From: Escherichia coli
GTDB taxonomy: Bacteria; Pseudomonadota; Gammaproteobacteria; Enterobacterales; Enterobacteriaceae
Assembly (NCBI RefSeq): GCF_045037415.1
Contig: NZ_CP173438.1
Direction: 5' to 3' (one strand)
DNA length: 64,000 bases
Made by a program: the position numbers. This document shows, in pieces, positions 32,601 through 38,600 of the stretch (the first letter of the stretch is position 1; each line of letters opens with the position of its first letter).

Positions 32601-35600
32601 ATATTGGTTTGATATTTGGCTTCGGTGTTATGCTCGGTCGCTTGCTGGCCGATGCGGGTGGTGCGCAGCGAATAGCGCTGACCATGCTGAATTATTTCGG
32701 GAAAAATAAACTTGACTGGGCAGTGGTCTGTTCGGCGTTTATTGTCGGTATCGCACTTTTTTTCGAAGTCGGTTTAATTCTTCTGGTACCTATTTTATTC
32801 GCTATTGCCCGTGAAGCAAAAATATCACCGATGTTTATGTGTGTGCCGATGCTTTCTGGTTTGCTGGTCGCACACGGTTTTTTGCCGCCGCACCCCGGCC
32901 CGACTGTTATCGCCAGGGAATATGGCGCTGATGTAGGATTGGTACTGATATACGGTATCATTGTCGGCATTCCAACCTTTATTCTTTGCGGCCCGGTATT
33001 GAATAAATTCTGCCAGCGCATTATTCCGGACGCCTTTAAAAAAGAGGGGAATATAGCCTCTCTCGGCGCGACCCGCCGATTCAGCGAAAGCGAAATGCCA
33101 GGCTTTGGGATCAGTTTTCTCACGGCAATGCTGCCGGTGATCCTGATGGCGGTTGTCACCATCATCCAGATGACTCATGCCAAAAGTGCCGCGGATTCTG
33201 GCTTATTTTACAACGTGATACTGTTCTTAGGTAATTCGACGATCGCCATGCTGATTTCACTGCTGTTCGCGATCTATACCATGGGCCTGGGGCGCGGGAA
33301 AACAATCCCTGACCTGATGGATTCTTGCGGAAAAGCTATCGCGGGTATTGCCGGTCTGCTGCTGATTATCGGTGGTGGTGGTGCATTCAAGCAAGTTCTC
33401 ATCGACTCTGGCGTTGGTCAGTATATTTCCACCCTGGTTTCGGGTATGGATATTAACCCGATCTTGATGGCCTGGGGCGTGGCCGCATTCCTGCGTATTT
33501 GTCTGGGTTCAGCCACCGTCGCGGCGATCTCTACCGCCGGTCTGGTCATCCCATTGTTGGCAGTACATCCCAATACCAACCTGGCCTTGATTACGCTGGC
33601 TACCGGTGCCGGATCCTGTATTTGTTCTCACGTTAACGATGCCAGTTTCTGGATGATTAAAGACTTTTTTGGCCTGACCACCAAAGAAACGCTGTTATCC
33701 TGGACGTTGATGTCCACACTCTTATCCATCAGTGGGCTGATTTTTATTCTGCTCGCCAGCTTAGTTTTATAATCGGGTTCTTGCCAGTGAGCCAACCTGT
33801 TGTTCACTGTCCCCCATAATTTAGTGAGTGACGGCAACCGTCTGCACGGTGACGAATCGCTGGCGATCAAAAAGGGGCGATATTGAACCGTCGATTATGC
33901 TTGATGGGTGTACTCTCAGTAATACTGTAAAGCCGGAGCATGTCTCCGACTTTACAGTATGGGGGAACAGCAGGCGATCGCTCAAATGGTATGCTGGTTT
34001 ATTTCATGTAAAAGAATAAAATATCTGTATAAAATCATGCCACTGGCAATCTGCATCAACTCTCCGGGTAAACAGGGTTAAGATGAGCATTTCCCCGGTT
34101 TAATACAGGTATACAAAAGTGGATAGAGATCAAACAAACAGCAGCCTGTTCAATGATGATCCCGTACTTCATGCAACATGGCTGTACTATCAGGAAGGCA
34201 AAAGCCAGACTGAAGTTGCAGCTATCATGGGGGTGTCCCGCGTCACGGTTGTCAAATACCTGCAAACAGCCCGGGAAAATGGACTGGTTCATATCAACCT
34301 GGATGTGAATGTCTTTGGCTCTATCGACGCTGCTTTGCAAATTCGCGATAAATTCAATCTCCAGAGAGTGATCATCGTGCCGGATGGCGAACATGCCGGA
34401 AAACGTGATGATACAAAGCTGATGCGGACTCGCCTTTCACGTGCCGGTGGCATGTATCTGAATCAGGTGATTGAGAATGGTGATGTGCTGGGGGTTGCCT
34501 GGGGAAGAACAATCCATCAGATGAGCAAAACCATGACGCCGAAGTCATGTAAAAATGTCACCGTTATACAGATGCTCGGTTCCATGCCATCTCAGCCAGA
34601 CCTGACGATCATTGAATCCTCATCGCAAATCGCCTACAAGCTTTCAGGCCGTGTCGCCTCGCTGCACGTGCCCGCCGTGGTATCAAGCGCCAGACTGGCC
34701 ATGGAGTTACAGGCAGAGCCTATTATTCGATCGAATTTTGACGTTCTGACTCGCTGTACGAAAGCCTTTTTTGTCGTGGGTAACGCGCTTGATGAAAATC
34801 CCCTGATTCGGGTGGGCGTGCTGAATAAGAAGGAAATGCAGACGTATCGGGATTTAGGCGCAGTAGGTGTCATTTGTGGTCGCTTCTATGACAAGGAAGG
34901 GATGCCCGTCGTGGCTGATGTTGACCAGCGTATTCTGGGAATCAGTCTGGCTCAGCTAAGGCAGATTGAACGGAAGATCTTCCTTGCTGGTGGGGAAAGA
35001 GGCTATGACGCAACGTTGGGTGCCCTGCTGGGAGGATATGTCACGGACCTGATTGTTGATGAAGGAACGGCAGAGTTTTTGCTGGCGTGTGAATTACCAC
35101 ACTAAAAGAATGAACAACTGCCCCATGTGGATATGGGGCAGGATTTTATTGATTAGCGGCGATAATAAGAACAATACCCACAATGTATGAAATAAACATG
35201 GTCAGCAGCAGTTTATTGGTTCCGGCTGGCGCACTGGCAAATTCTCTCCAGATGAAGACTCCCCAGATCACGGCAATCATTGTGGCCCCCTGTCCCAGAC
35301 CGTAGGAAATGGCATACCCCGCCTGACCAGACGCAATCAGACTGAATGCCAGACCGACACACCAAATCATACCGCCCAGCCAGCCGCAAACATGATCCCG
35401 TAAGCTCCCGGAAAAATACATTTTCCCGTTGACCGGTTCTCCTGAAATAGGTTTTTTCATGACCAGCGTGTTAAGGACAAAGTTCGACAAGAACAGCCCC
35501 ACGGCAAACAGAACAAGTGCTGAGTAAGGCGTCATCAGACCGCTGGCAGGCTGGCTGAAATTGTCAGACATGGAGTCCGCCAAGAAGCGGAAAAACCATC

Positions 35601-38600
35601 CCATGATGATACCCGCCAGAATGGCAGTAATGAGAACCTTTATTACGGCGAGATTTATCCGCCTCCTGCGTGACACGACCATAGGCTATCGCGGTAAAAA
35701 TAATGGCGCTCACAACGCAGGCGACACCGAGGAACAGAATGAGCGGATCGCCCTGCGGATTGCCGATATAGGTGGTGATCACACCCAGAGCCAGTGCCAG
35801 CCCCACACCCACAGGAAAAGCTACCGCCATACCGGCAAGATTAATAGAAGCGACCAGAAGAATATTGGAAATATTGAAGATAATCCCTGCCAGTATTGCC
35901 GACATCAGACTACTGCTGCTCGCCTGCTGAATATCAGGTATAAAACTGCGACCGGCTTCGCCCATAGAACCCAGCGTGAAGGCAAATAACAAAGAACACA
36001 GCAATAATCCAATTGAATAATCCCAATAGAATAGAGGGAACTCCCATTTTTTATTGCTGACAAGTTTAGTTGTATTCGCCCATGAACCCCAGCAAATCAT
36101 GGTAATAAAACACATTATTATGGCGACAGCATACGATTCCACGATAAACATAAATAACTCCTTGTGGTAGTTATAATCAATCGTTGTGGACAGAGGGAAT
36201 AGCAGCCATTCTGCGAATGGCTGTCATATGTTATTAATTAAAATAAAGCTGTAATTACGCTTTCAAACCATACGTTTTGAATTTTTCAAGGACGATGGTC
36301 ATTTCGGCTTCAGACAGCACGGGAACATCGTGATGTAATCCGCCACATTTGATGTATAAATCAGCCAGCGTCTCGGTTTCACCCGCCAGCCACAACGTCT
36401 TTTCCAGCGTGACGTCCATGGCCAGCATACCGTGGTGCTGCATCAGCAAGGACTTACTTTCTCTGATTCCTTTAGATACACCGTCGGCCAGTTCAGGACT
36501 GCCAAAGGTATAATAGGGAATACAGGGAATATGATCCGTCCCCGATACCGCCACCATATAATGAATGGCCGGAATTGAATGATTATGTATTGCCACCGCC
36601 GTGGAATTCACCGCATGCGTATGTATGACAGCATTCAATTCTGGTCTGGCTTTATAACACGCCAGATGAAATAACCATTCACTTGATGGTATTTTACCCG
36701 CTTCAGGTATTCCCTTATCGTCTACAAAGACAATCATGTCCGGCGTCATCTTTGAATAAGCGATCCCACTCGGCGTAATCAACATGCCACCGGTATACCT
36801 GGCACTCACATTACCTGATGTTCCTTGATTAAGACCTGACGCATTCATTTCCCGACAAGTGGAAATGATTTTTTCTGCTAACTTAATCCGTTCCATTCCT
36901 GATCCTTAATAGCAATGGCCGCCGTTTTAATGCTGTTCCCCCTGGAGTGCTTTACTCTTCAGGTCAGCAAACATATCCGCCAGCGCTGACTTACTGGCAG
37001 CACAGACTCCCCGCTCAGTAATGAAGCCGGTAATGTATCGGGCAGGCGTGACGTCGAAAGCGTAGTTCCCACAACGGGTTCCTTCAGGGGCGGTATTGAC
37101 CCAGCTCAATTCTCCCTGAGGGTTTATCCCATAGACATGGGACTGCTCTTTTCCGTCACGTTGCTCAATCGGAATGCTTTTTCCGTCCTCGATAGTCCAG
37201 TCAATAGTGGGAGAAGGTAACGCGACGTAGAAGGGAACATGGTTATCATGGGCCGCCAGCGCCTTAAGATAGGTACCAATTTTATTACAGACATCCCCTC
37301 TGGCCGTGGTTCGATCGGTCCCAACAATGCAGAGATCAACGTCACCGTGTTGCATCAGGTGGCCACCCGCGTTGTCGGCGATCAGGGTGTGAGGAATACC
37401 GTGTGAGCCCAGTTCAAATGCCGTGAGTCCGCCCTGATTACGTGGCCGCGTTTCATCCACCCAGACGTGAACAGGGATTCCGTTTTCATGCGCTTTGTAG
37501 ATGGGAGAAAGCGCGGTTCCCCAGTCTACAGTCGCCAGCCAGCCTGCGTTACAATGTGTCAGGATATTGACCACACTCCCGGCCGGTTTTTTCTGGGCTA
37601 TTTCGCGGATGACTTCTGTACCATGTAATCCAATTTGTTCACACAACGCGACATCTTCCTCGGCAATTTCTGCCGCCAGCGCCCAGGCCACATCCTTGCG
37701 CTCTGATACACAGAGATCCTTCAGTGTGTCTATCATCCTGTCGAGGGCCCATTTGAGATTAATTGCCGTTGGTCGGGTTTTGATAAGAAGGTCATAGTAA
37801 CGCTGCAGACCCATGTCACTGGCATCGTGATTCATTCCCAGCGCGATGCCATAGGCTGCAACGACACCAATAAGCGGAGCGCCACGAACCCACATCTCCT
37901 GAATAGCCGTAGCGGCCATTTCCGCAGAGGTAAGCGCCACCACCTCGAACTTAAAAGGCAACTTAGTCTGATCGATGATTTCTACCGCTTTTCCATCCCC
38001 GGAAACCCAGACCGTACGATAGTGTTTACCTTTAATATTCATAATGACCTCTTACTTAACCTTCGCAGACTGGATGACGGAATCCATATTTTTAAACTGG
38101 CGGGCATTGACGATAAGATCGCGCGCCATGGTCAATGCACGTCGTTCACATCCTGCGCGAAGCTCTGTATTTTCAATCTGTTTCAGCTCGGCAACGCCAG
38201 CAAAACCAATGATCCGGCGATTCATTTCCATGCCGGCATTCACCAGGGAATCTTCAAGCAGCGTGGCAAAAAACTGATCCTGTGCGTCCTCAAGAGCGGC
38301 CCTGTTCTGTTGATACATTTCTGTCGGCCACGCGTCGCCCTGTGTTTTGTTGTCCCAGAGCTGGCGGAACTCCCGGGTGAAAACGGACCAGGTTTGGACA
38401 ATCTGCTGAAGCAGCCATTCCTGATAGTCAGCGCGACGTTGCTCATTCGCATCCCACCCAGGGCGTGAGAAGTACGCCAGCAGGAGGTTGCCAATATAGT
38501 TGCCGATATCAAACGCCATTGGCCCCATGAAACCGAACTCCGGATCAATCACTTTGGTATCCGTGTCGGTCACCATGATTGAGCCTGAATGAAGGTCGCC

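Follow-up and report, generated by a model that had tools for sequence, protein, structure and literature searches.

A one-base frameshift in the permease gene of an Escherichia coli DHAP-shunt operon is very probably a consensus error at a methylated Eco31I site

The window, the whole 64-kb stretch of Escherichia coli DNA analyzed here, contains the DHAP-shunt genes in the order mtnK-mtnA-ald2-permease, the regulator gene yjhU/mtnR, which converges with the permease gene, and an Eco31I-type restriction-modification system (Table 1). The operon status of the four genes in E. coli 5'-deoxynucleoside salvage is known from published work (PMC12632272). At the permease locus lie two minus-strand ORFs in different frames, 35564..36151 (195 aa) and 35146..35682 (178 aa), which overlap by 119 nt. 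An earlier note on this DNA had recognized the same pair, with an overlap of ~120 nt, as the transporter gene of a salvage cluster split by a frameshift; both observations hold, the coordinates having been recovered exactly and the cluster being the DHAP-shunt operon with its regulator YjhU/MtnR.

Table 1. Features of the permease locus, of the Eco31I-type system, and of the altered Eco31I sites in the window
Feature	Coordinates	Strand	Remarks
Second corrupted Eco31I site, GGTTCTC for GGTCTC	18362..18368	+	Indel 18364; splits ltrA of group II intron
yjhU (mtnR), SorC/DeoR-type repressor of DHAP-shunt operon	34119..35105	+	Sugar-bind, 268 bits; PMC12632272
GRP/DMT-family sugar permease, fourth and last DHAP-shunt operon gene	35146..36151	-	Two overlapping ORFs due to one extra base
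Eco31I/EcoMI site GAGACC read as GAGAACC	35632..35638	+	Extra A at m6A position 35635/35636; cause of the frameshift
ald2, DHAP-shunt class II aldolase, intact	36255..36896	-	Aldolase_II, 173 bits; DNA identical to JJ1887
mtnA, 5-methylthioribose/5-deoxyribose-1-phosphate isomerase, intact	36927..38042	-	
mtnK, 5-methylthioribose/5-deoxyribose kinase, intact, first operon gene	38052..39311	-	PMC12632272
Eco31I-type restriction endonuclease gene, two fragments	44933..47925	+	RE_Alw26IDE positions 1-154 and 179-506
M2.EcoMI-type C5-cytosine methyltransferase, intact ORF	47938..49128	-	DNA_methylase, 207 bits; PMC4659465
M1.EcoMI-type N6-adenine methyltransferase (Eco31I family), intact ORF	49121..50761	-	N6_Mtase; WP_001295726.1 annotated in identical sequence; PMC4659465
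Third corrupted Eco31I site, GAACC for GAGACC	62757..62761	+	Indel 62759; frameshifts "GTPase family protein" gene

Each ORF individually exceeds the gathering threshold (27 bits) of the Pfam model Ureide_permease (PF07168, 359 positions), the upstream one matching positions 2-125 with 42.7 bits and the downstream one positions 198-358 with 39.0 bits. Because these matches cover complementary parts of the model, the two ORFs are, on sequence grounds, halves of one transporter, and a chance pairing is ruled out. Alignment with the intact gene of Nissle 1917, as the earlier note had recommended for pinpointing the indel, reveals a single surplus base: the coding strand reads GGTTCTC where the intact gene has GGTCTC, the additional A:T pair lying at 35635/35636. 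This site is inside the ORF overlap but 4 nt outside the range 35640-35690 in which the earlier note had placed the break. With one base deleted, the gene encodes 334 aa and its product matches P0016 (WP_000471145.1) exactly. The N-terminal ORF consists of 172 native residues and an aberrant 23-aa tail, and the C-terminal ORF of an out-of-frame 16-aa leader and the last 162 native residues; the frame is lost at codon 172, which falls in the central loop separating the five-helix halves. Relative to intact orthologues the reading frame is disrupted, as in a pseudogene, and PGAP labels the identical sequence elsewhere "GRP family sugar transporter, frameshifted."

The assignment of the permease to the GRP family follows from both halves exceeding the PF07168 threshold and from the annotation of the corrected protein as "GRP family sugar transporter," and its position is that of the last gene of the operon, convergent with mtnR. 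An NCBIfam scan of the permease returned RhaT models only far below their cutoffs; a RhaT equivalog identity was dropped accordingly, and we make no assignment finer than GRP/DMT. The putative substrate is 5-deoxyribose or methylthioribose. The real gene most likely encodes the intact 334-aa GRP/DMT-family permease WP_000471145.1.

Internal duplication is a feature of DMT transporters, and within the DMT/SMR superfamily half-size members function as dimers. Together with a break at codon 172, between the halves, this gives some appeal to the idea that the two-ORF form is functional, either as a split transporter assembled from five-helix halves or through a programmed +1 frameshift that restores the full-length protein. 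Orthologues in E. coli and Citrobacter, however, are single 334-aa ORFs, and neither the two-ORF arrangement, which might have been the conserved functional form, nor the shift site is conserved. A search for a ribosome-binding site and start codon from which the C-terminal half could be made separately gave nothing convincing, and the split transporter was rejected: the 30 nt upstream of the ATG at 35682, TGAGCGCCATTATTTTTACCGCGATAGCCT, hold no Shine-Dalgarno-like sequence, that ATG sits 118 nt before the stop codon of the upstream ORF, and the next in-frame ATG would cut into helix 6. Programmed +1 frameshifting was likewise rejected, there being no conserved slippery or stimulatory context and the orthologues being single ORFs; moreover, the allele appears stochastically among replicate assemblies. 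The single-ORF orthologues effectively refute a functional two-ORF form already, and we regard it as scarcely credible.

The surplus base lies in an Eco31I recognition site, on the adenine reported as m6A (GAGACC read as GAGAACC), and outside any homopolymer or repeat prone to recurrent slippage. The window encodes both methyltransferases of an Eco31I-type system; their genes lie 12-15 kb from the permease lesion. The endonuclease gene is interrupted by a copy of ISEc52 at 45518-46767, an arrangement annotated identically in A1.S1.126 and Ecol_AZ146, so the methyltransferases would act as orphans. Carrier Esc10 likewise retains both methyltransferase genes. A tRNA scan of the window returned zero tRNAs, which places leuX itself beyond the window. 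In ST131 strain EC958, the GAGACC adenine is methylated at 100% of sites by M1.EcoMI, encoded on GI-leuX (PMC4659465), and both marks, including m5C at GGTCTC, have been detected by ONT in ATCC 25922 (PMC12679398). In the source strain, M1 would be expected to produce GAG(m6A)CC and M2 GGT(m5C)TC.

Similar changes turn up, far more often than by chance, at further Eco31I sites, of which the window holds 14. Comparison with finished references leaves four small differences private to the window, one in a C homopolymer and three indels, and all three indels (35635, 18364, and 62759) fall within Eco31I sites (P of about 1e-8). The error alleles of the ltrA and GTPase sites, the former in 6 RefSeq assemblies, are found in the sequencing projects that also yielded the permease allele, and the GTPase-gene allele is also annotated as "frameshifted" in Esc10. 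When six other assemblies carrying the permease allele were compared with the window, 8 of 22 differences lay inside Eco31I sites (P of about 2e-17). Among these eight are C>T and G>A substitutions of the m5C pair and identical +T/+A insertions at other sites, which produce more "frameshifted" genes, namely, sgcC in strain 447 and istA in strain 98215; outside these eight, the carriers also show GATC errors and homopolymer deletions. The affected sites are in 98215 (22616 and 53726), 447 (25241), A1.S1.126, UID2309220015, and Esc10. The permease site is altered more reproducibly (in 10 assemblies and the window) than the other 13 Eco31I sites of the window; this counts against a sequencing error, although sequence context may account for it.

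The distribution of the allele bears on whether the insertion could be genuine, the permease having recently become a pseudogene and the DHAP shunt being fed 5-deoxyribose and methylthioribose by other routes. The permease allele is present in 10 of 1,237 complete E. coli genomes, about 99% of E. coli genomes with the locus having the intact form, and its exact 195-aa product is found in 18 contigs, versus at least 1,000 for the intact protein. Placing the ten carriers in one clade by SNPs in the flanking 40 kb was abandoned, as ST131 shows next to no variation there (0-1 true SNPs); markers used instead (the ISEc52 insertion, SNP 47950, and Nissle-like SNPs) show the allele to be homoplasic. 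It occurs both with and without ISEc52 in the endonuclease gene and the 47950T marker, and also on a Nissle-like haplotype, and on these conflicting backgrounds it fails the four-gamete test. Within the "Esc" series of one clone, the only carriers are Esc7, Esc10, and Esc25; the gene is intact in Esc5, which over 39.7 kb departs from Esc10 at just two positions, each inside an Eco31I site. The allele is neither clonal nor heritable, and inheritance by descent in a coherent clade was not found. Short public contigs (Logan) with the allele start precisely at GATC or at the fourth base of GAGACC (4 of 12 contig ends, P of about 2e-9); an exception, SRR26624655, carries the allele without a motif-associated break or other error, which speaks against a sequencing error.

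For a genuine insertion, it can be said that the ORF is truly broken in the given sequence and that finished ST131 genomes match the remaining 26-kb neighborhood without a difference, the assembly thus being accurate elsewhere. The permease also appears dispensable, since K-12 with mtnK-mtnA-ald2 and no permease grows on 5 mM 5-deoxyribose (PMC10986504), and as the last gene of the operon it could be lost without polar cost. Against this stand the coincidence of the base with a methylated Eco31I position shared by the window's two other indels, the conflicting haplotypes and the three isolated carriers in a single clone's series, the lack of a sequence that would favor repeated slippage, and the rarity of the allele. 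We consider a genuine insertion improbable, and the view raised in the earlier note, of a pseudogene that leaves the operon reliant on some other means of uptake, probably does not hold for the organism on the same evidence of motif, recurrence, and haplotypes. Its other suggestion, a sequencing indel, is strongly favored.

Because the extra base falls on a methylated adenine, because similar changes recur at Eco31I sites, and because the allele is scattered over incompatible haplotypes and replicate assemblies, we conclude with high confidence that the frameshift is a methylation-induced consensus error of long-read, nanopore-type sequencing and not a pseudogene. The error signatures suggest that the platform was nanopore. 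The source strain is an ST131-like E. coli in which the end of the leuX island encodes the Eco31I-type system EcoMI, and the true permease sequence, AATGAGACCTTT, would hold one Eco31I site. At this site M1 would place m6A on one strand (GAG(m6A)CC) and M2 m5C on the other (GGT(m5C)TC); the modified bases may distort the pore signal, and a base-caller or polisher would then add an A at the methylated adenine (GAGAACC), shifting the frame at codon 172. The intact permease would be cotranscribed with mtnK-mtnA-ald2 under MtnR/CRP control. Consensus errors induced by methylation in ONT data are documented (PMC11610573); those published are mostly purine/purine or pyrimidine/pyrimidine substitutions, with 1-bp indels at m6A less documented, which counts against this explanation. 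A literature search combining GAGACC with nanopore found papers on methylation detection and none naming GGTCTC/GAGACC as an error motif. Alternatively, methylated Eco31I sites could constitute a methylation-linked mutational hot spot, with 1-bp indels arising there repeatedly as genuine mutations, which would account for recurrence on many backgrounds without sequencing error and would mean that genes containing GGTCTC, the DHAP-shunt permease included, are stochastically knocked out in lineages with EcoMI methyltransferases; we judge this very unlikely.

On the reading as a consensus error, the frameshift is in all probability not a real biological feature, the gene being ordinary and intact. 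Its biological weight is small: in this ST131-like strain the DHAP-shunt operon is best treated as complete, and the frameshift gives no ground for claiming a loss of uptake. It does serve as an annotation warning: a permease pseudogene wrongly annotated as "frameshifted" would be present in at least 10 E. coli genomes listed as "complete" in RefSeq. About 32 would have a false frameshift in the GTPase gene, and in several ltrA, sgcC, or istA would be falsely frameshifted, always at GGTCTC/GAGACC sites. A bias at this motif is to be expected wherever pseudogenes are counted, cgMLST distances computed, or pathway completeness called from long-read-only assemblies of strains with Eco31I-type methylation.

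Three known systems offer comparisons. The putative permease of the DHAP shunt in ATCC 25922 (PMC12632272; PMC10986504) shares with ours the position after ald2, the neighbors mtnK, mtnA, and ald2, and the convergent yjhU/mtnR; minus one base, the permease here is the widespread 334-aa form, with no biological difference from that of ATCC 25922. The methylation system corresponds to EcoMI of the ST131 GI-leuX (Forde et al. 2015, PMC4659465) in its place beside McrBC at the end of the leuX island, in its intact M1 (N6-adenine) and M2 (C5-cytosine) genes, and in its recognition sequence, GGTCTC/GAGACC; unlike in ST131 EcoMI, the endonuclease in the window is broken by ISEc52, and we infer methylation in the source strain. 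Finally, the changes resemble the methylation errors described for ONT data (Lohde et al. 2024, PMC11610573; Wick et al. 2019, PMC6591954), in being confined to a strain-specific methylation motif, on or beside the modified base, in recurring among isolates that share a methyltransferase, and in varying between replicate assemblies so as to create false allele differences. Whereas A/G or C/T ambiguities dominate the known cases, the Eco31I motif here also gives rise to 1-bp indels, and those in the window (+A at m6A and -G opposite m5C) produce false frameshifts.

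The two overlapping minus-strand ORFs that the earlier note had read as a frameshift-split transporter recur at the same coordinates in the ORF list, with an overlap of 119 nt. Both exceed the Pfam gathering threshold for Ureide_permease (DMT-type sugar/ureide permeases) and fall on separate parts of this one model, and because each matches its own part, they are halves of one transporter. Alignment with the intact Nissle 1917 gene (1005 nt, WP_000471145.1) gives a sole difference: the coding strand reads AAAGGTTCTCATT, against AAAGGTCTCATT in Nissle 1917, i.e., one extra A:T pair at 35635/35636. 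With one base deleted, the gene encodes 334 aa, and its product matches the widespread form of the permease exactly. Codon 172, where the frame shifts, lies in the central hydrophilic loop (…EADKSRRNKG/LITAILAG…), such that the N-terminal product carries 172 native and 23 aberrant residues and the C-terminal ORF a 16-residue out-of-frame leader and the last 162 native residues.

Features of the window that bear on the split transporter gene
Feature	Coordinates	Strand	Remarks
SorC/DeoR-type regulator	34119..35105		Pfam; convergent with transporter gene
C-terminal transporter ORF	35146..35682	-	178 aa; Ureide_permease positions 198-358
N-terminal transporter ORF	35564..36151	-	195 aa; Ureide_permease positions 2-125
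Class II aldolase	36255..36896	-	Pfam
IF-2B-family isomerase	36927..38042	-	Pfam
APH-fold kinase	38052..39311	-	Pfam; strand shared with aldolase and isomerase
Eco31I-type endonuclease gene	44933-47925		Split by ISEc52; fragments 44933-45520, 46843-47925
ISEc52 in endonuclease gene	45518-46767		
C5-cytosine methyltransferase	47938-49128		Intact
N6-adenine methyltransferase	49121-50761		Intact
Group II intron with ltrA	17085-19355		2.27 kb; inside ISEc52 copy upstream of sgc genes; error site 18362-18368
"GTPase family protein" gene	62581-63540	-	Homologue of WP_001553935.1; error site 62757-62761
Private difference	6362		C5 vs C4 homopolymer
Private difference	18364		+T; GGTCTC to GGTTCTC; splits ltrA
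Private difference	35635		+A (transporter)
Private difference	62759		-G; GAGACC to GAACC; frameshifts GTPase family protein gene

The transporter's neighbours also include a GntP permease (Pfam), and in RefSeq the annotated gene order here is yjhG-yjhF-yjhU followed by "GRP family sugar transporter," then genes for L-fuculose-phosphate aldolase, mtnA, and mtnK. The surrounding 25 kb is nearly identical to O25b:H4-ST131 genomes, and 1598 E. coli records match the 1.3-kb transporter region at 95% identity or more. The true gene would be an intact 334-aa GRP/DMT-family permease, last in the MtnR/CRP-controlled DHAP-shunt operon. In orthologues elsewhere, among them those of Citrobacter farmeri and C. 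braakii, a single ORF encodes the whole 334 aa; therefore, the two-ORF form, whose conservation in orthologues would have refuted the earlier note's reading, is not a conserved arrangement. That the halves constitute a functional split transporter or a programmed frameshift is scarcely credible, given this lack of conservation, the stochastic occurrence of the allele, and the want of a ribosome-binding site (no Shine-Dalgarno-like sequence was found upstream of the C-terminal ORF's ATG).

The intact sequence at the lesion, GGTCTC (GAGACC on the plus strand), is the Eco31I/BsaI recognition site, and the extra A coincides exactly with the methylated adenine of GAGACC. Compared with the finished references JJ1887 and Ecol_AZ146 (and M217 for the intron), the window has four private small differences in ~61 kb, and all three non-homopolymer indels lie at Eco31I sites, of which the window holds 14 (binomial P ~1e-8). 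The ltrA gene, intact in M217, reads here as overlapping ORFs (17741..18385 and 18357..19265), an artefact of the same type as the transporter split; none of the ST131 loci compared has the intron here. Of 4490 E. coli records, 32 share the error allele at the GTPase site (annotated as "frameshifted" in Esc10), most of them stemming from the same sequencing projects; the error allele at the ltrA site is found in 6 records. The two come largely from the same projects, not always from the same assemblies. None of the window's other 13 sites is miscalled as reproducibly as that at 35635.

The homopolymer difference from JJ1887 (6358-6362), just outside the fimS segment, may be a read error or a real variant. 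The fimE-fimA segment containing this invertible switch (6386-6680) is oriented opposite to that of JJ1887, and fimB (~7811-10303) is interrupted, by identity with JJ1887, by the ISL3-like ISEc53 with a ClbS/DfsB-like gene. The ISEc53 insertion in fimB is typical of ST131 clade C.

Among complete E. coli genomes searched with an 81-nt probe centred on the insertion site, 10 of the 1237 with the probe region carry the insertion (98215, A1.S1.126, 447, 439, 463, UID2309220015, Esc7, Esc10, Esc25, and ECKH-100), and PGAP labels the transporter "frameshifted" in all seven carriers whose annotation was examined. Eco31I sites hold 8 of the 22 small differences between six carriers and the window (P ~2e-17). 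Two further GGTCTC sites carry +T in strain 98215, and that matching 53725 yields "istA frameshifted"; in strain 447, +A at a different GAGACC site (25241) yields "sgcC frameshifted" (447 locus 8604-9918); and in A1.S1.126, UID2309220015, and Esc10, the m5C base pair itself is changed, by C>T or G>A. Outside these eight are four GATC (Dam) errors in A1.S1.126 and T-run deletions in UID2309220015. Consensus errors from nanopore sequencing of native DNA classically leave such differences. Single-base indels at T-runs in UID2309220015 fimC and fimD, and +A at 38014 in ECKH-100 mtnA, leave these genes "frameshifted" or shortened; together with sgcC, they suggest further false pseudogenes in public records. 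The ISEc12 element (IS21 family, istA/istB; 51817-54397) is also present in 98215 and 447 and absent from JJ1887, Ecol_AZ146, and A1.S1.126.

The exact 195-aa frameshift product occurs on 18 contigs and the intact protein on at least 1000. Six short Logan contigs carry this product, and 4 of their 12 ends lie exactly at base 4 of GAGACC (25940 twice, 27569 twice; P ~2e-9); a fifth contig has both ends at GATC, and the other ends are IS boundaries. De Bruijn contig breaks at methylation motifs indicate read sets heterogeneous at those motifs.

The ISEc52 insertion in the endonuclease gene, found in A1.S1.126, Ecol_AZ146, and many other ST131 genomes, marks a sublineage together with SNP 47950T. 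The allele accompanies both markers in the window and A1.S1.126, occurs without them in 98215 and 447, and is absent from Ecol_AZ146, which has both markers and an intact transporter; a third allele-bearing haplotype has Nissle-type SNPs (31479G, 33961A; loci L019 and L021). The Esc series, in which one clone is represented by many assemblies (mostly of 5,156,475-5,156,542 bp), gives the cleanest evidence on inheritance: only Esc7, Esc10, and Esc25 have the frameshift. Esc5 and Esc10, inspected directly, share ISEc52 and CTX-M-15/OXA-1 insertions, and Esc5 encodes intact WP_000471145.1; over 39.7 kb they differ only by GGT[C]TC C>T and GAG^ACC +A. Such a distribution is that of stochastic consensus noise, not of descent.

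Of the earlier note's two options, the sequencing indel is the one supported, and what is shown here is the site of the lesion, its coincidence with the motif, the recurrence at Eco31I sites, and the non-heritable distribution. A real mutation in the strain is improbable and would have mild consequences: the permease gene ends the operon, so its loss would exert no polar effect, and K-12 with only mtnK-mtnA-ald2 grows on 5 mM 5-deoxyribose (PMC10986504), so another uptake route exists. The frameshift very probably arose in the base-calling or polishing of long reads, as an error induced by methylation at GAG(m6A)CC/GGT(m5C)TC, and we infer a nanopore platform and a signal-level cause. The transporter split is no real biological feature, and public long-read E. 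coli assemblies with Eco31I-type methylation have a systematic source of false pseudogenes.

The window itself encodes a system of the Alw26I/Eco31I/Esp3I family, 9-15 kb from the lesion. With the endonuclease broken by ISEc52 and both methyltransferases intact, methylation would be "orphan." In the Esc clone (Esc10 and Esc5, 30.6-40 kb of their loci), what truncates the endonuclease gene is a resistance module in the chromosome, made up of a catB remnant, blaOXA-1, aac(6')-Ib-cr, IS26, a Tn3 remnant, blaCTX-M-15, and ISEcp1; both methyltransferase genes lie directly beyond this module. The system was named EcoMI in ST131 strain EC958 (Forde et al.), where it is located on GI-leuX, SMRT sequencing found 100% of GAGACC sites methylated, as GAG(m6A)CC, by M1.EcoMI, and GGT(m5C)TC is the predicted product of M2.EcoMI (PMC4659465). 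Nanopore data detected both modifications in E. coli ATCC 25922 (PMC12679398), and published work documents that methylation causes miscalls of one purine for the other and of one pyrimidine for the other (PMC11610573).
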